A program made the translations under genes and the position numbers. From the IMG/VR virus record IMGVR_UViG_3300009646_000070: a stretch of 38,960 nt of DNA; one strand, written 5' to 3'. Below the pieces are notes generated by a model. It did no database searches and was not told where the DNA came from. It saw only the letters and a program-made list of their open reading frames with translations. Shown piece by piece: positions 1 to 34,876 of this stretch. Origin of the DNA: a virus. Positions within the stretch are counted from its first letter, which is position 1, and the number at the start of each line of letters is the position of its first letter.

Positions 1-303
1 GCGAGCTACTTGGTGATCTTCGGTATATTCTGCGCAGTTGATCTTTATCATGCAATCCGGGTCTCCGTGGATTGCTTCGGCGATTGACTCTACGGTCAAC
101 GTCTTGCCAACCCCAGTCGGTCCCAAAAGTAAAGAATTAAACATTGGTTTAGACGGGTCTGACAGGCCAACCCACGCAACCTCGAATGACCTGCTAAGAT
201 CATTTAAGGCGTCGTCCTGACCCACTATGCGCTTGAAGAGCAAGTCTTCAAACTTTTGCCGCGCTTTGGTTTTAAGTGTCAGGTCCAGCGGAATGTTAGC
301 CAT
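1..303 (-). CDS. Stand-alone ClpA/ClpB D2-type AAA+ ATPase (N-terminal part; runs off the window edge)
   Basis: Missing from the ORF track. Manual translation from ATG at 303: MANIPLDLTLKTKARQKFEDLLFKRIVGQDDALNDLSRSFEVAWVGLSDPSKPMFNSLLLGPTGVGKTLTVESIAEAIHGDPDCMIKINCAEYTEDHQVAR. This matches the IVGQ..A / LxDPxRP / GPTGVGKT / I.C.EY.E.H.VA signature of the second Clp AAA module, with no N-domain or D1. Confidence 0.85.
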   Translation of the reverse strand, partial: MANIPLDLTLKTKARQKFEDLLFKRIVGQDDALNDLSRSFEVAWVGLSDPSKPMFNSLLLGPTGVGKTLTVESIAEAIHGDPDCMIKINCAEYTEDHQVAR

Positions 304-339: not shown

Positions 340-1011
340 TTAAAATACTATCCTTAAAACCGGATTATGAATTTTATAGACATAGCAATGTTTCCCCGGC
401 AATTCAATCGAAATCAATTCTCCTTGGTCATACTTTGCTCGAAGTTTTTTCACGAACGGTTTGTAATCCCCATTGTATTTCGTCCTAAGTGCGCGGGAAT
501 GATAAGTCCGTCCGGTTTCGGGGTCTGTGAATCCTCTGTCCTTTCCGCTGAGACCTATATATTCAAAATTGGATGCTTTGTAGATTACACCGCTATGTCC
601 GTGCATCGGGTCAGCATAACTAACAACAATTTTGATTTCAGGCGCATTCTTTTTAATCCAACGCAAGGTATAGCCGATCATGCGGCTTTCAGCGTTTTTC
701 CCCACCGAATCAAGGAAAACTAATCGCCGTAATTCCAGTACCTCTTTTTCGGATTCTCCAAATCTTTTCCAAGCCGTAGTTGAAAATTGACCGTAAACAA
801 CCGCACCGACCAACGCGCCTTTATACGTGGCCGAAAAGCAGAAAGAAATTTTCACCCCATTCAAATTATGTGAGTAATGATGCTGTTCTACAAACATCCG
901 AATATCCGAAAGTTTGCATTGCGCAATTACAAAATCTGTCGCTGAAATTTGGAGCGAAGGAGTCGGAATCGAACCGCTACCTGACTGCTGGTTGACAGTC
1001 TGTCCTACCAT
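340..1011 (-). CDS. Mom-like GNAT-fold protein (putative DNA base-modification enzyme)
   Basis: Motifs FVEQHHYSH, LVGAVVYG, ELRRL, AESRMIG, VVSYADPMHGHSGVIYKASNFEYIG are typical of Mu Mom-like proteins. Start placed at ATG 1011; the track uses TTG 1035. Confidence 0.75.
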   Translation of the reverse strand: MVGQTVNQQSGSGSIPTPSLQISATDFVIAQCKLSDIRMFVEQHHYSHNLNGVKISFCFSATYKGALVGAVVYGQFSTTAWKRFGESEKEVLELRRLVFLDSVGKNAESRMIGYTLRWIKKNAPEIKIVVSYADPMHGHSGVIYKASNFEYIGLSGKDRGFTDPETGRTYHSRALRTKYNGDYKPFVKKLRAKYDQGELISIELPGKHCYVYKIHNPVLRIVF

Positions 1012-1025
1012 TAAACGACCTCCGC
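950..1025 (-). ncRNA. tRNA-like element with 8-nt anticodon loop overlapping the start of the Mom-like gene
   Basis: Minus strand GCGGAGG-TC-GTTTAATGGTAGGAC-A-GACTG-TCAACCAG-CAGTC-AGGT-AGCGG-TTCGATT-CCGACT-CCTTCGC-T-CCA: 7-bp acceptor stem, D arm, anticodon stem, T loop, encoded CCA. Confidence 0.7.
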
Positions 1026-1039
1026 ACTTCTGCAAATTT

Positions 1040-1222
1040 TCATATTTTACCTTCGCACCAACAAGGCATCCATATTAGCCCGTAGTGGGGGCACTTAAAG
1101 TCTTCGTGCTCCCACCACTGACCGCAATTAGGACAACGGTGTGGGTGAAGGGCCGTTCGTTCTTTCTTTACCGGCCCTTCTTTTGCGTCATTTGCTAGCT
1201 TCGCTCGTTTTACTGACGCCAT
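1040..1222 (-). CDS. 60-aa Cys/His-rich putative zinc-binding protein
   Basis: GGAGG 6 nt before the ATG; CPNC...CPH...CWC; overlaps the recA 3' end. Confidence 0.6.
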   Translation of the reverse strand: MASVKRAKLANDAKEGPVKKERTALHPHRCPNCGQWWEHEDFKCPHYGLIWMPCWCEGKI

Positions 1223-2270
1223 CTTTGGCCTCCGTTTGTTTCAGGCGCTCTGTCATGGCTGTGAGAACTTTTTGGTACGTCTCAGTCACAGCCGGGGTAT
1301 TCAAGGTGTCAATGGCGTTGCGCCGTCCTTGACCGAGGCGTTCGTTGTTAAAAGCGTACCATGCGCCCGATTTTTCTACTATACCATACTCCACGGCATT
1401 GTCAAGCAAATTCCCGGTCACGTCCAAACCCCGGTCAAACAGCAGGTCTATTTCAACTTCGCGGAACGGCGTCCCTACTTTGTTCTTTACGGCTTTGATG
1501 CGAGTCCTGTTTCCAATTATTGGAGCATCTTCGCCAGACCCTTCTTTGATTGCGCCGATGCGCCGCATGTCCAGCCGGACAGAGGCATAGAACTTCAAAG
1601 CACGTCCGCCGGTGGTGGTCTCCGGCGAGCCGAACATAACACCAATCTTTTCGCGGATTTGGTTGATAAATATCACGACCGTCTTGCTCTTGTTGATCTT
1701 GCTCCGCAGCATCCGCATAGCCTGTGACATGAGCCTAGCCTGTAAGCCTACGTTGGCATCGCCGATCTCGCCGTCAAGCTCGGCTTGGGGCACCAGTGCG
1801 GCAACGGAGTCTACAACGATCACTCCGAAGGCGGCGGATTCGACAAGCATGTCCAAAATTCCAAGAGCTTCTTCTCCGCTGTCCGGCTGGCTAATCATGA
1901 GAGCTTTAACATTGACTCCGTTTGTCGATGCCCACTTCGGGTCTACGGAGTTTTCTGCGTCGATGTACGCGGCTAGCTCGCCCACAGCTTGTGCAGCGCC
2001 GACAATGTGCAGCGCGAGGGTGGTCTTGCCGCTGGCTTCTGGTCCGAAGATTTCGATGATGCGTCCTCGGGGTACTCCGCCTATACCGAGAAGATCGTGA
2101 TCGACGCTCCAAATGCCGGTAGGTATATGCGGCATCGGTATGCCTAGTTGTCTGGCCATAGAGAAGATCGCTCCCTTGCCGTACTTCTCTTCAACTTTCC
2201 CAAAAACTTGACTGGCTGCTTTCAGCTTGTCCTGTTTGGTTTGCGGTGTTTCGACAGGTACGTCGCTCAT
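1188..2270 (-). CDS. recA: RecA recombinase
   Basis: GRIIEIFGPEASGKTT Walker A, VIVVDSVAALVP, QARLMSQAMR, NQIREKIGVMFGSPETTTGGRALKFYASVRLD. Confidence 0.98.
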   Translation of the reverse strand: MSDVPVETPQTKQDKLKAASQVFGKVEEKYGKGAIFSMARQLGIPMPHIPTGIWSVDHDLLGIGGVPRGRIIEIFGPEASGKTTLALHIVGAAQAVGELAAYIDAENSVDPKWASTNGVNVKALMISQPDSGEEALGILDMLVESAAFGVIVVDSVAALVPQAELDGEIGDANVGLQARLMSQAMRMLRSKINKSKTVVIFINQIREKIGVMFGSPETTTGGRALKFYASVRLDMRRIGAIKEGSGEDAPIIGNRTRIKAVKNKVGTPFREVEIDLLFDRGLDVTGNLLDNAVEYGIVEKSGAWYAFNNERLGQGRRNAIDTLNTPAVTETYQKVLTAMTERLKQTEAKDGVSKTSEASK

Positions 2271-17396: not shown

Positions 17397-17468
17397 GCTG
17401 CTCGGCAGGGATCGAACCTCCGAGTTCGGCCCTGTGGACCGGAACTCTACCGCTGAGTTACGTGTGGC
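17397..17468 (-). pseudogene. Degenerate tRNA
   Basis: D arm TAACTCAGCGGTAGAGT and T arm GGAGGTTCGATCCCT present; acceptor strands do not pair, no CCA, anticodon loop irregular. Confidence 0.55.
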
Positions 17469-18439: not shown

Positions 18440-18513
18440 TGGTTTCCGGGGCTGGACTCGAACCAACGTTCTCAGGTTCAAAGCCTGATGTCCTACCATT
18501 GGACGACCCGGAA
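18440..18513 (-). tRNA. tRNA-Gln(UUG)
   Basis: TTCCGGG/CCCGGAA acceptor, TCAGG-CT-TTG-AA-CCTGA, TTCGAGT loop, CCA. Confidence 0.93.
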
Positions 18514-18518
18514 AAAAT

Positions 18519-18605
18519 TGGTGGGGTGTAGTGGAGTCGAACCACCTGCCCACAAGTGAGCACGGGTTTACAGCCCGCCCTAGTCGCCAGTGCCAGTCAC
18601 ACCCC
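18519..18605 (-). tRNA. tRNA-Tyr(GUA)
   Basis: GGGGTGT/ACACCCC, GCGGG-CT-GTA-AA-CCCGT, long variable arm, CCA. Confidence 0.93.
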
Positions 18606-18616
18606 GAAAAAGAAAG

Positions 18617-18923
18617 TGCTGAGGGTAGATGGAGTCGAACCACCACAGAGGCTAGGCGCTGTACACACGGAGCTAGCCTCCATCCGCTTTTATTGCTACT
18701 GGATTTCACAAGGTTCCTGCCTCGCCTCAGCGCATAACTGGCGGCTTCGAGGAATGGGATTCGAGACCCACTATACGAAACAATTACCGGGCTTAATCCG
18801 GCACGTAACCGCATACCGAACGCAACTGCGTTGTGCCTATCCACAAGGCGCTCCAAGGATTTGAGGTCTTACGTCTATCAGTAGCCTATTTAGCGTTGCA
18901 TCTGCCGATTCTGCCATACCCCC
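18617..18923 (-). ncRNA. tRNA-Leu-like 5' and 3' ends bracketing a large structured insert (RNA-A)
   Basis: 5' GGGGGTA-TG-GCAGAATCGGCAGATGC (Leu-type D arm) pairs with 3' TACCCTC-A after the T arm GGTGG-TTCGACT-CCATC; ~230 nt lie between them. Confidence 0.6.
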
Positions 18924-18931
18924 GAAAAGGT

Positions 18932-19065
18932 TTTGGGGAAAGATGAGTGGTGAGGATTTCGCTTTCGGTTTCGTCCCGGCCTATCCTCTAGGGCTAGGGC
19001 GAAGCTGCGCCGTTGATTCGAGCCTAAGCGATGTCTTGCCCGTACGGGCCTCACCTTCCCCCAAA
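18932..19065 (-). ncRNA. Structured RNA between tRNAs; candidate YrlA-type Y RNA
   Basis: 11-bp closing stem TTTGGGGGAAG/CTTTCCCCAAA plus GTGAGG/CCTCAC; a T-like loop GGCTCGAATC precedes a GGCG/CGCC hairpin and a D-like TAGCCCTAGAGGATAGGC. Confidence 0.45.
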
Positions 19066-19067
19066 CT

Positions 19068-19152
19068 TGGTGGCGATAGAGGGAGTCGAACCCACACGGT
19101 TTTACCCACTGGTTTTTGAAACCAGCGCGTCTGCCAGTTCCACCATATCGCC
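19068..19152 (-). tRNA. tRNA-Leu(CAA)
   Basis: GGCGATA/TATCGCC, CTGGT-TT-CAA-AA-ACCAG, variable arm, CCA. Confidence 0.95.
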
Positions 19153-19161
19153 TGAAAGATT

Positions 19162-19244
19162 TGGTACGGGGAGAGGGCATCGAACCCCCATGGTTGCCCA
19201 CTGGTTTCTAAGACCAGCGCGTCTGCCAATTCCGCCATCCCCGC
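19162..19244 (-). tRNA. tRNA-Leu(UAG)
   Basis: GCGGGGA/TCCCCGT, CTGGT-CT-TAG-AA-ACCAG, CCA. Confidence 0.95.
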
Positions 19245-19246
19245 AC

Positions 19247-19503
19247 ACGAGAACATTCGGCAGAGTATCGTTACTCTTTTCTCGCAGTTCCTACCGGATT
19301 TGAAAAAAGAGAGTATGGATTTCACTTTGTTCCTGCCTACGCCTAGCCCGCATGGGGTTCGGACCCATGTTCCTGCGGTATATTCTGCCCGCAGTGTGCT
19401 TCCTGCATCGCCGGTTTGCCCCGGCTAGCCTATGTCTACACTAGCGGTAAGGTTTCGGTCTTACGTCTCTCACACTTTTTGATACTCTGCCGAATGCTCT
19501 CGT
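19247..19503 (-). ncRNA. Structured RNA closed by 23-bp inverted repeats (RNA-B), paralogous to the RNA-A insert
   Basis: IRs 19247-19269 / 19481-19503 (22/23); shares a 12/12 and a 20/23 motif with RNA-A; internal tRNA-like fold at 19343-19428. Confidence 0.6.
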
Positions 19504-19581
19504 TCTGTGGCAGCCAGGCGGCCGCCTGAGAGGCAAGCTCAAAACAGAGCTGACGGAAGCTCTCGATAGTAAGCCAATTGA

Positions 19582-19788
19582 TCATTGACCAGAAAGCTTG
19601 CGTATGGTCTCGCCGTAGTCCCTGACGGCACGGCTGACTGCCTCTGCGACAACTGGATTCCGACGCTCTGGAATGCCCGGGATGGTCAGGGTGGCGATTA
19701 TTGGATCTGCGTAGAATTGATACTTCAAGGCCACCTCACCGCCCACAGTGATTTCGAATCGCTCAATCTTTCTTATTCTTATTTCCAT
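19582..19788 (-). CDS. Hypothetical protein
   Basis: RBS GGAGAGG before MEIRIRK. Confidence 0.6.
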   Translation of the reverse strand: MEIRIRKIERFEITVGGEVALKYQFYADPIIATLTIPGIPERRNPVVAEAVSRAVRDYGETIRKLSGQ

Positions 19789-20101
19789 CGCCCTCTCCTT
19801 CGTTGGCTTGGTTATCCTACTCCTCCAGCAACTCGGAAATCCTCTTTCTCTCAATCCACTTAAACCCAGCATAGCTCGTCACTAAAGCGATGTCCACGTC
19901 TCCGCCCGCGGTTTTTGAAGTTGCGACGATCATAACTTCCCATGTTACCATACCTCCAATCCCTTGTCAACTGGTTTTTTTTGGGCGGTCGGAGTCGGAT
20001 ACTCCGAAACAGCAGCCTCGCATCGGCCAACGCTTTACGTGGCCTTCGCCTGCAAGTCCATCGCATCTGCTGTCAGCTTGCAGCCTCCGCCCAAATCTAT
20101 T

Positions 20102-20176
20102 TGGTGCGCCCGGATGGATTTGAACCACCGGCTTCCTGCTTGTAGGGCAGGCACTCTTCCGCTGAGTTACGAGCGC
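20102..20176 (-). tRNA. tRNA-Val(UAC)
   Basis: GCGCTCG/CGGGCGC, CCTGC-CC-TAC-AA-GCAGG, CCA. Confidence 0.92.
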
Positions 20177-20177
20177 A

Positions 20178-20271
20178 TGGCGGAAGGTGCTGGATTTGAA
20201 CCAGCGGGTCCCTTTGAGGGGGACCAACGGTTTAGCAAACCGCCGCATTCGACCATCTCTGCCAACCTTCC
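20178..20271 (-). tRNA. tRNA-Ser(GCU)
   Basis: GGAAGGT/ACCTTCC, GCGGT-TT-GCT-AA-ACCGT, long variable arm, G73, CCA. Confidence 0.95.
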
Positions 20272-20277
20272 GTAAAC

Positions 20278-20349
20278 CGCGCAGTGCGGGAGTCGAACCC
20301 GCCAGTAACGGCTTTGCAGGCCGTTGCCTAGCCGATTGGCTTCCTGCGC
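20278..20349 (-). tRNA. tRNA-Cys(GCA), atypical
   Basis: ACGGC-CT-GCA-AA-GCCGT with canonical arms; G7-A66 mismatch, G discriminator, no encoded CCA. Confidence 0.75.
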
Positions 20350-21389
20350 GTAGTGAACGCCACATTTCGTTTCGGACGCTCGGGAGCGTGAGCCAAATTT
20401 TCAAGCGGCACTCGCTCGATAGGAATGTTCTGAATAGCCGGACCGGGCACGTTCAAACGTCCGGTAGGGCTAGGAGCGTCCATGTCCAACTTGCTACGCC
20501 AGCCAAGGAAGATTGCATGACGTGGTTTAACCTTGGCACCATGTGGAAAGTGTTTGTACTTCATGATGCGACCGTTGTAGGCCAGTGGGTTCGCTTGCAG
20601 TTCTTTCCACATCTTGCGTCGCTGGCGCATCGTGAATCCGACGCCGACCTCGAACTCGACTTTGCTCTTGCAATCACGTACTAGAAACCGGCCAAGCAAA
20701 GGCAGAGGCACCTTACCAGCTTTGGACAGGGACCTCTTCGTATGGCCGAGGGCGTTCTTGAACGCAGCATTGGCGTTGTGATAGAGGGGTAGAAAATCAT
20801 AGACCTCGGCGTCTGCGTCAACAAACCTCTTCACCTTTAGCAGCCAGCCTTCCCGCTCTGTTGACCGGCCATGCTTGTACGGACCTTGCGGGTCCCGGAT
20901 CATCACGCCCTCGCCGCCATGGGCTAGAACGTCTTTCTCGAAGGCCCGCAACTCAGCCACACAGAATACGAGGGTCTGGCGGACAGCTTTAACACTGAAA
21001 GACAACGGACCCATAGCAGTAACAGCATAGCAATAATCTTCGTACCGTTGCTCGAAAGGCTTGTCCTCTACCTTGTCGAATACGTAAAAGTCAACGTCTG
21101 CGCCACGGGAATCATGTTCACTCATGACGATGGAAAGCGTGAGGCAGTAGCAATCCTTTGCATTCGGGTCGCCGTAAATAAGCTCTCCGTCCAGACCCGG
21201 CTCTGCCCTGCGAAGTTTTTCCTGCACAAATTCGTTCGGAATCAGATTCATACTGCGACTCATAACAACCGAGGCAGTATTATCTTCCTTGTGAATAAAC
21301 GCACGAATCCCGTCCAGCTTCACAGAGGCATAGACCGGGTAGCGTAACTTTTTCACATTGCTTGTCTGTGTTGCCAACATCACCTGCAT
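20328..21389 (-). CDS. ATP-dependent DNA ligase
   Basis: ASVKLDGIRA (motif I), LDGEL, FYVFD, GGEGVMIR, LLKVK, OB-fold VGVGFT, KYK...KPRHAIF. Confidence 0.93.
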   Translation of the reverse strand: MQVMLATQTSNVKKLRYPVYASVKLDGIRAFIHKEDNTASVVMSRSMNLIPNEFVQEKLRRAEPGLDGELIYGDPNAKDCYCLTLSIVMSEHDSRGADVDFYVFDKVEDKPFEQRYEDYCYAVTAMGPLSFSVKAVRQTLVFCVAELRAFEKDVLAHGGEGVMIRDPQGPYKHGRSTEREGWLLKVKRFVDADAEVYDFLPLYHNANAAFKNALGHTKRSLSKAGKVPLPLLGRFLVRDCKSKVEFEVGVGFTMRQRRKMWKELQANPLAYNGRIMKYKHFPHGAKVKPRHAIFLGWRSKLDMDAPSPTGRLNVPGPAIQNIPIERVPLENLAHAPERPKRNVAFTTRRKPIG

Positions 21390-33490: not shown

Positions 33491-33565
33491 TGGAGCGTGT
33501 GGCGGGACTCGAACCCGGCCTCTTCAGTTTGGAAGACTGAGGCACAACCTCTATACCACGCCCAC
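33491..33565 (-). tRNA. tRNA-Gly(UCC) with two acceptor-stem mismatches
   Basis: TCAGT-CT-TCC-AA-ACTGA, T arm, U73-CCA; 5' GTGGGCG vs 3' CACACGC gives G4-A69 and C6-A67 mismatches. Confidence 0.75.
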
Positions 33566-33909: not shown

Positions 33910-33984
33910 TGGTCAGGGCTGAGGGAGTCGAACCCCCGACCTCGTGGTCCCAAGCCACGCGCCATACCGCTTGGCTAAGCCCTG
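33910..33984 (-). tRNA. tRNA-Pro(UGG)
   Basis: CAGGGCT/AGCCCTG, CGTGG-CT-TGG-GA-CCACG, CCA. Confidence 0.93.
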
Positions 33985-34800: not shown

Positions 34801-34876
34801 GGGCTTGTAGCTTAATCGGGAGAGCACCTGCCTTGCACGCAGGGGGTTGCAGGTTCGATGCCTGTCGGGTCCACCA
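34801..34876 (+). tRNA. tRNA-Ala(UGC)
   Basis: GGGCTTG/CGGGTCC with G3:U70, CCTGC-CT-TGC-AC-GCAGG, A73-CCA. Confidence 0.93.

Follow-up and report, generated by a model that had tools for sequence, protein, structure and literature searches.

The window is a 38,960-nt stretch of DNA from a virus (IMG/VR record IMGVR_UViG_3300009646_000070), and the locus described here is read from its minus strand and centred on a gene of the Mom family (Table 1). The encoded protein scores 137.6 bits against the Pfam Mom profile (PF25680, cut-off 27.1), covering profile positions 2-186 of 202, and matches Mom of phage Mu (PDB 8bv8) with an E value of 5e-12. In an alignment whose Mu Mom numbers were deduced from the delta-10 crystal construct, six of the seven residues that are essential in Mu Mom (H58, Y59, R111, S124, D149 and Y159) have identical counterparts in the window enzyme, and the seventh, R151, is replaced by Met. 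Directly upstream lies an ORF for a 60-aa Zn-ribbon-like protein. A 10-codon uORF begins in the ATGA at the stop of that ORF and ends in a TAA that overlaps ATG 1011 (TAATG), in every respect as the initial annotation had described it; the uORF is out of frame with the position at which the genes of the relatives start, namely an in-frame ATG 4-19 nt ahead of G1. The same annotation had placed a 76-nt cloverleaf over the start region of the Mom-like ORF, with the ATG in the D loop. Both statements are borne out: the ORF belongs to Pfam Mom, ATG 1011-1009 falls in the D loop, and the Mom domain begins 5 codons past the CCA of the cloverleaf, which takes up the first twenty-odd codons of the gene. 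Scans for promoters and terminators near the element gave only background levels.

Table 1. Features of the Mom-like locus in the window
Feature	Position	Strand	Basis or remark
tRNA-Gly-like cloverleaf, 76 nt, encoded CCA	950..1025	(-)	sequence, relaxed ARAGORN, Rfam tRNA 20.5 bits, R1 77 bits, family covariation
Acceptor stem, 5' strand GCGGAGG	1019..1025	(-)	sequence; G1, C2, G3 belong to the GlyRS identity set
D-loop AUG (AAUGGUA), in the reading frame of the Mom domain	1009..1011	(-)	sequence; sole possible start in L179, L186, L209
Anticodon-like arm GACUG-UCAACCAG-CAGUC	983..1000	(-)	sequence, relaxed ARAGORN, family loop counts
T arm AGCGG-UUCGAUU-CCG[A]CU, bulged A at 963	961..978	(-)	sequence; translated S-G-S-I-P-T
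Acceptor stem, 3' strand CCUUCGC, discriminator U73 (953), CCA (952-950)	950..960	(-)	sequence; translated P-S-L-Q
Mom-family gene, frame open from TTG 1035, ATG 1011, stop 342-340	340..1035	(-)	Pfam Mom, Mu Mom 8bv8 match
10-codon uORF MKICRSAEVV, ATG 1043	1011..1043	(-)	good SD (GAAGG) 6 nt before its ATG
60-aa Zn-ribbon-like ORF, directly upstream of the Mom-like gene	1040..1222	(-)	Pfam Zn_ribbon_3, E 0.008, below cut-off

The cloverleaf is real, as judged from the minus-strand sequence, from ARAGORN run with relaxed thresholds and from its covarying relatives. It consists of a 7-bp acceptor stem (GCGGAGG/CCUUCGC), a D arm GUUU-AAUGGUA-GGAC, an anticodon-like arm, a variable region of 4 nt and a T arm. 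The bulge previously reported in the T stem is a single A that can be read from the sequence, and the frame across the T loop does read G-S-I-P-T. The anticodon loop of 8 nt proposed at the outset can be drawn on a stem of 5 bp; the arm is better drawn with 6 bp, closed by a U.G pair, and a 6-nt loop CAACCA, since the two end bases of the 8-nt loop covary as an additional pair in 45 of 57 copies. ARAGORN, one of the checks proposed by the initial annotation, misses the element at default settings and with relaxed thresholds returns tRNA-?(Val|Gly)(aacc), 76 nt, at exactly 950-1025. Against the Rfam tRNA model (RF00005) the score is 20.5 bits (E 0.12), short of the gathering score of 29, and against the family model R1, of which the window copy is a seed member, it is 77 bits, the best copies reaching 92. 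Folding, the other check proposed, had a mixed outcome: the cloverleaf can be drawn from the sequence, and its single-sequence folding energy is ordinary (z about -1) and hence uninformative, as is normal for tRNAs. That the element goes beyond chance follows from the covariation of its relatives and not from single-sequence scores. The 7-nt anticodon loop, U33 (an A occupies the position) and regular 5-bp T stem of ordinary tRNAs are lacking, and with its missing U33 and its 77 bits the window copy ranks with the more deviant members of its family. It does possess the features that define a Mom-embedded tRNA-Gly-like element, namely a cloverleaf of about 76 nt in a Mom gene, an NCC in a small apical loop and a bulged T stem.

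The identity set of bacterial GlyRS comprises U73, G1-C72, C2-G71, G3-C70, C35 and C36 (PMC9976931). The window copy has all six, with C35 and C36 at 991-990. In the family, pairs 1-3 of the acceptor stem do not vary (GCG/CGC), whereas pairs 4-7 change freely and covary. The apical loop contains NCC in 79/79 copies; among those with an 8-nt loop C35 is found in 57/57 and C36 in 55/57. The discriminator is U73 in 76/79, and the CCA is encoded in 40 of the 43 N-type copies. A Trp-like CCA anticodon was ruled out, the conserved triplet being NCC followed by A37. Loop sizes in the minimum-energy folds range from 3 to 11 nt and only two of 79 copies have a loop of 7 nt. T-stem base pairs set the affinity for EF-Tu (PMC3239215), and the position of C50-G64, a pair read by Thermus GlyRS (PMC9976931), adjoins the bulge. 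By its nucleotides, the element is a look-alike of a glycine tRNA with the full GlyRS identity set, and by the same reading the parts that would face the ribosome and EF-Tu, the anticodon arm and the T stem, are deformed.

A DNA pattern on the T arm alone gathered 84 distinct copies from contigs of uncultured phages. Apart from the window copy, 77 of 83 overlap or abut a Mom-family gene. In-frame ORFs downstream of the element belong to Pfam Mom in 43/46 cases and those upstream in 20/20, as do the ORFs abutting the remaining copies in 14/17. About 40% of the copies lie at or beyond the 3' end of the Mom gene, and the same RNA occurs untranslated, free-standing and at Mom 3' ends. The bulged T stem recurs in copies reached through the protein alone (L039, L082-L085, L093 and L103). 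In a model-fitted alignment of 83 distinct sequences, 97.8% of the paired cells are paired, 16 of 21 pairs show double changes and 462 cells are compensatory; all four stems covary, with a covariation score of 0.646 versus 0.16 for shuffled controls and no more than 0.137 when the partners are slid. The search for covariation among homologues recommended in the initial annotation was thus answered by strong compensatory changes in every stem, and the encoded peptide varies at the places where the stems covary. This compensation extends across lineages whose proteins are only 15-40% identical, and the 5' in-frame arrangement spans 16 protein clusters at 50% identity. The four-stem cloverleaf is kept by compensatory changes, as expected of a tRNA, and by sequence comparison the element is a member of a phage family of cloverleaf RNAs that is widespread and subject to structural selection. 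A remnant of an attP or other integration site was considered and rejected, since the copies have full length, show compensatory changes where they diverge and are located mid-genome.

Most Mom genes lack the element, which was found in 1/79 and 6/80 loci ascertained by Mom. It is absent from the Mom genes of Corynebacterium phage Darwin, Vibrio phage EniLVp02 and Enterococcus phage Ef6.1, which carry short N-extensions, and blastn of a consensus-like copy against cultured phages gave no match. In bacterial genomes the T-arm pattern yields mostly chance matches, with only about 4 true copies among 121.

Copies located before Mom are always in frame with it. The frame used contains a stop in one of 46 copies, the other two frames in 39/46 and 40/46, and the equivalent frame of free-standing copies in 8/18. 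An in-frame start lies 4-25 nt ahead of G1 in 40 of 46 copies, and most N-type copies have their start and Shine-Dalgarno sequence outside the fold; a conserved start 3' of the element was sought among the copies and none was found. In the window, AUG 1011 is the likeliest start codon. A Shine-Dalgarno-like GGAGG (1023-1019) in the acceptor strand precedes it by 7 nt, and therefore both signals are located within the fold. At least three other lineages (L179, L186 and L209) have no possible start but the D-loop AUG, and in L186 and L209 the layout GGAGG/GGAGA-7 nt-AUG is the same as in the window. Hence a fold-versus-translate switch is plausible. The initial annotation had proposed a translational or processing switch, and to this extent the proposal stands: the signals are inside the fold and excision of the tRNA would remove the start of the mRNA. 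What it missed is the glycine identity, the Mom-linked family and the chemistry of Gly-tRNAGly.

Mu Mom moves glycine from Gly-tRNAGly onto the N6 of adenine in dsDNA (Silva 2026, PMC13219725). It accepts all host tRNAGly isoacceptors and rejects Gly-tRNAAla, and Mom enzymes bind the acceptor end of tRNAGly, where recognition at least partly takes place (PMC13219725). Taking into account that Mu Mom draws its glycine from Gly-tRNAGly, we read the element as a private glycine carrier of the enzyme. We propose, with a probability of about 0.6, that it is a non-decoding glycine tRNA placed within the 5' end of a Mom-type gene and serving that enzyme. In the model, RNase P would cleave part of the transcripts at G1, with trimming to the CCA. 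The released carrier would be glycylated by the host GlyRS, and the Mom-like enzyme would take the glycyl group from a carrier that EF-Tu and the ribosome could not reach. The remaining transcripts would stay intact and yield the enzyme, translation starting at the D-loop AUG 1011 or at TTG 1035 and running across the tRNA sequence. Since GGAGG and AUG are inside the fold, folding or processing and translation would exclude each other. This exclusion would also restrain the expression of a potentially toxic enzyme. That the transcript is bifunctional in this strict sense, with the same 76 nt either matured to a glycine carrier or translated as the enzyme N-terminus and the switch setting the ratio of carrier to enzyme, is a more tentative proposal, to which we give slightly less than even odds.

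Several observations speak against a carrier. The element is below the Rfam tRNA threshold, the window copy has A in place of U33, and the bulge in its T stem and the altered shape of its anticodon arm might interfere with RNase P, the CCA end or GlyRS. The phage contains a canonical tRNA-Gly(UCC) at 33491-33565 (ARAGORN) and Mu Mom uses all isoacceptors, therefore a private carrier is not strictly needed. Besides, most Mom genes do without the element, the window enzyme has Met at the position of R151, which is essential in Mu Mom, and release of the tRNA destroys its own mRNA.

The strongest competitor, though an unlikely one, is a tRNA mimic that acts only in cis, being neither released nor charged, and that controls the Mom-like mRNA by sequestering the Shine-Dalgarno sequence and AUG, by exposing it to destruction by RNase P, or as an operator for the Mom-like protein or GlyRS. 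Such mimicry has a precedent in the thrS operator, which mimics tRNA-Thr. The location of GGAGG and AUG 1011 inside the fold and the repeated D-loop starts of L179, L186 and L209 speak for a mimic; autoregulation is conceivable given the binding of Mom enzymes to the acceptor end of tRNAGly, and Mu mom is translationally controlled, as cited in PMC13219725. However, the roughly 40% of copies at or after the Mom 3' end are unable to occlude a start, and in most N-type copies the start and Shine-Dalgarno sequence are outside the fold. The strictness of C35, C36, U73 and the encoded CCA is also more in keeping with recognition by a synthetase and with a free 3' end than with an operator. Considerably less probable is an evolutionary relic, in which a tRNA-Gly gene captured at the Mom 5' end would now be a tolerated N-terminal peptide with a fold of no present function. 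The open frame with an upstream start in most copies and the deviant character of the window copy (no U33, 77 versus up to 92 bits) count in favour of a relic, but compensatory changes hold four stems across lineages with proteins 15-40% identical, the peptide varies where the stems covary, and the same RNA is also found untranslated, free-standing and at 3' ends.

A role in translation, either as an ordinary tRNA-Gly or as the quadruplet-decoding tRNA (+1 frameshift suppressor, anticodon AACC) suggested by the initial annotation, is very improbable. Relaxed ARAGORN does report a four-base anticodon aacc, and the phage has ten other tRNA genes. The +1 frameshift suppressors, for instance those of the sufD type, have 8-nt anticodon loops and retain U33, a regular T stem and the ability to work with EF-Tu. 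The likeness to them is limited to the 8-nt loop obtained when the stem is drawn with 5 pairs; the extra bases form the covarying sixth pair (45/57), which leaves a 6-nt loop, and loop size varies from 3 to 11 nt with 7 nt in only 2/79 copies. Moreover, the window copy has A in place of U33, the bulge is in the stem that governs EF-Tu affinity (PMC3239215), and the tight linkage to Mom genes would be left unexplained. We attach equally little weight to an annotation artefact, whereby the ORF enters an independent tRNA pseudogene by chance and the true start is an internal Met (MFVEQHHY), as in the 185-aa form P0001 given by gene callers. That Met is conserved in no homologue and is preceded by a conserved helix that is part of the Pfam domain; the frame is open in 45/46 copies while the others are stopped in 39-40/46, and no out-of-frame upstream copy was seen.

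Mu Mom shares with the window enzyme the PF25680 domain and six active-site equivalents, and differs by its R151, where the window enzyme has Met, by its use of host tRNAGly with no tRNA in or beside mom, and by its regulation through Com. In com-mom control the zinc finger of Com opens a hairpin that hides the mom start. The window resembles it in having an RNA structure over the Shine-Dalgarno sequence and start of a Mom gene and a 60-aa Zn-ribbon-like ORF directly upstream and translationally coupled. The structure is, in contrast to the simple hairpin of Mu, a whole tRNA with synthetase identity elements, and the Zn-ribbon ORF does not resemble Com in sequence. A homologue of this ORF was sought beside the Mom genes of the relatives and none was found; a Com-like partner was therefore rejected for the window gene, the parallel with Mu Com is unsupported, and membership of the ORF in the system is doubtful on present sequence comparisons.

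The non-proteogenic tRNAGly isoacceptors of Staphylococcus aureus, which feed FmhB, FemA and FemB (Rietmeyer et al. 2021, PMC7826273), offer a functional analogy. They are charged by the normal GlyRS and reserved for a tRNA-dependent transferase, and changes in their D and T arms weaken their use by EF-Tu and the ribosome; the same is predicted by analogy for the window element. The staphylococcal tRNAs differ in being separate genes outside the coding sequence of the enzyme, with regular cloverleaves, 7-nt loops and an unrelated lineage, and the acceptor substrate is peptidoglycan, versus DNA for Mom.

Mom was shown to be a tRNA-dependent DNA aminoacyl transferase in 2026, and a host tRNA was assumed as the glycine source (PMC13219725). 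If the proposed carrier exists, many phages would bring their own glycine donor, kept from protein synthesis, which would add a second natural example of partitioned tRNAGly pools to that of the staphylococcal Fem system. The carrier would also be the first to be encoded within the reading frame of its enzyme, with one sequence shared by a tRNA gene and the enzyme it serves, and a compact case of overlapping RNA and protein coding with a fold-or-translate switch. Such a carrier would provide a ready minimal substrate for the biochemistry of Mom-type enzymes, and would account for "pseudo-tRNA" calls as well as for N-termini of tRNA origin (..VEQ..GGSIPT..) that are taken for spurious by annotation filters.

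A tRNA-Gly-like locus embedded in a mom homologue has been in print since 2011, without a function. McMurdie et al. (2011, PMC3146451) described a 76-bp tRNA-Gly-like 'pseudo-tRNA' within the leading 150 bp of the mom homologue carried by Dehalococcoides ssrA genomic islands, in 16 near-identical island copies from one genus, and proposed no function for it. It resembles the window element in being an equally long cloverleaf within the 5' end of a Mom homologue, with an NCC anticodon in an undersized loop, of the kind usually dismissed by annotation pipelines. The window element differs in residing in a tRNA-rich phage and in a different Mom clade, in having the start codon in the D loop, and in belonging to a set of at least 84 diverse copies that includes 5' as well as 3' architectures. 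A copy from a Dehalococcoidia MAG (L282) has the bulged T arm and the in-frame position found in the window.

The 76-nt element with encoded CCA reported by the initial annotation at 950-1025 (-) is present in the sequence, and so are its 8-nt loop and its bulged T stem. ATG 1011 lies inside the D loop and the T loop, read from the sequence, translates as GSIPT. The 10-codon uORF likewise runs from ATG 1043, whose ATGA overlaps the stop of ORF 1040-1222, to a TAATG on ATG 1011, and the Mom-like ORF 340-1035 encodes a Pfam Mom protein (137.6 bits). Standard detection of the element was poor: the Rfam tRNA model gave 20.5 bits, under the threshold of 29, and ARAGORN, a check that had been suggested, did find it, at relaxed thresholds only, as tRNA-?(Val|Gly)(aacc). 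The folding energy of the window element was not unusual.

Parts of the window element and further features of the window
Feature	Sequence	Position	Strand	Basis
Acceptor 5' strand and linker	GCGGAGG-UC	within 950-1025	-	sequence reading
D arm	GUUU-AAUGGUA-GGAC-A	within 950-1025	-	sequence reading
Anticodon-like arm	GACUG-UCAACCAG-CAGUC	within 950-1025	-	sequence reading
Variable region	AGGU	within 950-1025	-	sequence reading
T arm, bulged A	AGCGG-UUCGAUU-CCG[A]CU	within 950-1025	-	sequence reading
Acceptor 3' strand, discriminator, CCA	CCUUCGC-U-CCA	within 950-1025	-	sequence reading
Sigma-70-like site, upstream TG	TTGACA-16-TATAGT	1378-1405	-	11/12
Weak partial match, model positions 8-65		17404-17460	-	R1, 16.9 bits
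Canonical tRNA-Gly(UCC)		33491-33565	-	R1, only 31 bits
Nine other regular tRNA genes		18440-20350, 33910-33984, 34801-34876		

The relatives of the element show that it is not a chance resemblance. An N-terminal extension, M..CGDSS.VEQ....FQ.DGGSIPTSPLQ/H, occurs in 33 of the best 120 protein homologues and is the tRNA read in one fixed frame, with VEQ as the D arm, GSIP as the T loop and LQ as the U-CCA end; the short homologues begin 0-2 residues ahead of the same conserved helix. Loci reached via the protein alone (L039, L082-L085, L093, L103) carry this cloverleaf too, with the bulged A in the T stem. An independent DNA search of IMG/VR contigs with the bulged T arm only (pattern GGCGGTNNNATTCCGACC) returned at least 120 rows, from which one tape-measure-like coding false positive was dropped. 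The T-arm matches listed and the protein-derived copies amount to at least 84 distinct cloverleaves, from which the covariance model R1 was built. In its alignment A4 (83 distinct rows), which is fitted to the model and has its T arm fixed by the search pattern, standard pairs fill 97.8% of pair cells, 16 of 21 pairs show double-sided changes, and the covariation score is 0.646 versus 0.160 for column shuffles and at most 0.137 for slid partners. Copies were collected only if the acceptor paired and began with GCG, which left out just a handful such as L217 (GCC), L282 and L298; the unselected D and anticodon stems show double changes at 4/4 and 5/5 pairs. The nucleotide-level cloverleaf covariation that had been put forward as a test is borne out, with 462 compensatory cells. 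L282 (Dehalococcoidia MAG) and L298 (Terriglobia MAG) are in-frame 5'-embedded copies with U1-A72 instead of G1-C72, and therefore this first identity pair is not universal; the 3' end of L282 is CCG instead of CCA.

The T-arm search pattern carries no information on neighbouring genes. Among the at least 84 copies, 46 overlap an ORF in frame at its 5' end, and 43 of these ORFs are Pfam Mom; 20 overlap one in frame at its 3' end, and there every ORF is Mom. For the other 18 copies, 14 of 17 abutting upstream ORFs are Mom, and none of the ORFs 3' of these "free" copies is. No copy upstream of Mom but out of frame was seen among those collected. Since the hosts of the 5'-embedded copies form 16 clusters at 50% identity, this arrangement is old or repeatedly selected. 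The majority of Mom genes lack the element, which occurs in only 1/79 and 6/80 Mom-ascertained loci. In the second architecture (L176, L185, L190, L194, L200, L214, L215, L229-L231, L234, L247, L248, L251-L254, L256, L271, L275) the Mom ORF reads through an element at its 3' end and acquires the C-terminus ..PYPKR..S..S....Q...GGAIPT..L; in 14 further copies Mom terminates at a stop codon placed on the opening bases of the element. Only about half of the 3'-end-type copies encode CCA. One protein with the tRNA-coded N-extension, P0044 (382 aa), has an extra Pfam PF16786 domain fused to Mom.

The frame statistics contradict the idea that the overlap of element and gene is an annotation artefact. 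The frame continuing into Mom is interrupted by a stop in 1 of 46 5'-embedded copies (L193, really of the 3' type), the other two frames in 39 and 40 of the 46, and the same frame in 8/18 free-standing copies. An in-frame ATG precedes G1 by 4-19 nt in 30/46, with a GTG or TTG at most 25 nt ahead in 10 more, while no conserved start was found 3' of the element in the homologues and 5'-embedded copies compared. Translation through the element is therefore well supported. The Pfam Mom domain starts 5 codons past the CCA, and the 185-aa gene call P0001 is probably too short. The start layout of the window is a variant within the family: a good SD precedes ATG 1043, which is out of frame; TTG 1035, at the position usual in the family, is in frame with poor SD spacing; and the D-loop AUG 1011 stands 7 nt past the acceptor-strand GGAGG. 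The D-loop AUG is the only possible start in L179, L186 and L209, because stop codons lie just ahead of G1, as is a D-loop GUG in L278, and L186 and L209 have the GGAGA/GGAGG-7 nt-AUG layout in common. Hence AUG 1011 is favoured as the start of the Mom-like gene, with ribosomes arriving either directly or through termination-reinitiation. Folding of the cloverleaf buries this AUG together with its SD.

In the copies, collected with the GCG-start requirement, acceptor pairs 1-3 are invariant (G-C, C-G, G-C) and pairs 4-7 vary freely. U occupies the discriminator position in 76/79, 40/43 5'-embedded copies encode CCA, and all 79 apical loops contain NCC, as UCC (63), ACC (14, the window copy among them) or CCC (2). 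These conserved positions are precisely those that experiments have defined as the glycine identity set of bacteria, U73, G1-C72, C2-G71, G3-C70, C35 and C36 (Giege and Eriani 2023, PMC9976931). The decoding apparatus is deformed. Drawn with a 5-bp stem, the loop has 8 nt in 57 copies, and in 45 of these the two bases at its ends pair with each other (U-A 20, C-G 18, U.G 6), so that the arm is better drawn as 6 bp with a 6-nt loop; MFE loops of 7 nt occur in only 2/79. The 8-nt loop of the window is thus a family trait and not the quadruplet anticodon once suggested. As described in PMC3239215, T-stem base pairs set EF-Tu affinity; the conserved bulge sits in this stem and would weaken EF-Tu binding.

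Silva et al. 2026 (PMC13219725) showed that Mu Mom takes glycine from Gly-tRNAGly and attaches it to N6 of adenine in dsDNA, after which the product rearranges on the base to carbamoylmethyl-adenine. It accepts all three E. coli tRNAGly isoacceptors and does not use Gly-tRNAAla (PMC13219725), which means that its recognition also involves tRNAGly features close to the 3' end. Aligned with Mu Mom (8bv8, E 5e-12), the window protein keeps the equivalents of H58, Y59, R111, S124, D149 and Y159, with Met at R151, a residue essential in Mu Mom (PMC13219725). The window clade reads ADP-x-HGH (343-1011 (-)) versus ADE-R-CGR in Mu Mom, with an invariant His two residues past this Met. Judging from these residues, its catalytic arrangement or product may differ from that of Mu Mom.

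Sequence comparison favours the reading that the element is a private glycine carrier for the Mom-type enzyme. In the proposed model, host GlyRS would charge the element and the Mom-type enzyme would recognise it, the element being poorly adapted to use by EF-Tu and the ribosome. Its release, by a cut at G1 and freeing of the CCA end, would sever the start from the coding region, so that each transcript would yield either carrier or enzyme. The non-proteogenic tRNAGly of S. aureus (PMC7826273) would be an analogous case. The main rival is a purely cis-regulatory mimic of a tRNA. Copies at the 3' end are unable to occlude a start, and that CCA and the nucleotides of synthetase identity are conserved also speaks against a mimic. 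Covariation that persists among deeply diverged copies contradicts a functionless relic. Loop geometry, the T-stem bulge and the linkage to Mom contradict a tRNA used in decoding, quadruplet or otherwise.

In Dehalococcoides ssrA islands, the mom homologue contains within its first 150 bp a conserved 76-bp tRNA-Gly-like locus with a DCC anticodon in a loop of 5 nt, for which the authors suggested no function (McMurdie et al. 2011, PMC3146451). The copy L282, from a genome scan, compares with that locus; it is in frame with Mom, and its T arm carries the same bulge. Phage-encoded or embedded tRNAs are not mentioned by Silva 2026 (PMC13219725), and our literature search found no paper joining the embedded tRNA-Gly-like locus with Mom glycyl transfer. 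A tRNA-dependent transferase with a reserved tRNA is already known; new here is a putative carrier embedded in the reading frame of its enzyme.

Directly upstream of the Mom-like gene, and with coupling through ATGA, ORF 1040-1222 (-) encodes a Com-sized protein of 60 aa (CPNC...CPH...CWC); it gave a sub-threshold Zn-ribbon match only, and no homologue adjoins the Mom genes of the relatives. The near-consensus sigma-70-like site falls within the 3' portion of recA, some 155 nt ahead of this ORF, in a region where such sites occur at background level. At L034 and L036, weak R1 matches (1184-1260 (+), 26.8 bits) about 740 nt upstream of a Mom without embedded element may represent a separate tRNA near Mom. 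The weak R1 match in the window, near the tRNA cluster, may be a tRNA fragment. Since the window also has the canonical tRNA-Gly(UCC), this genome has two glycine tRNAs, of which the embedded element is the deformed one.
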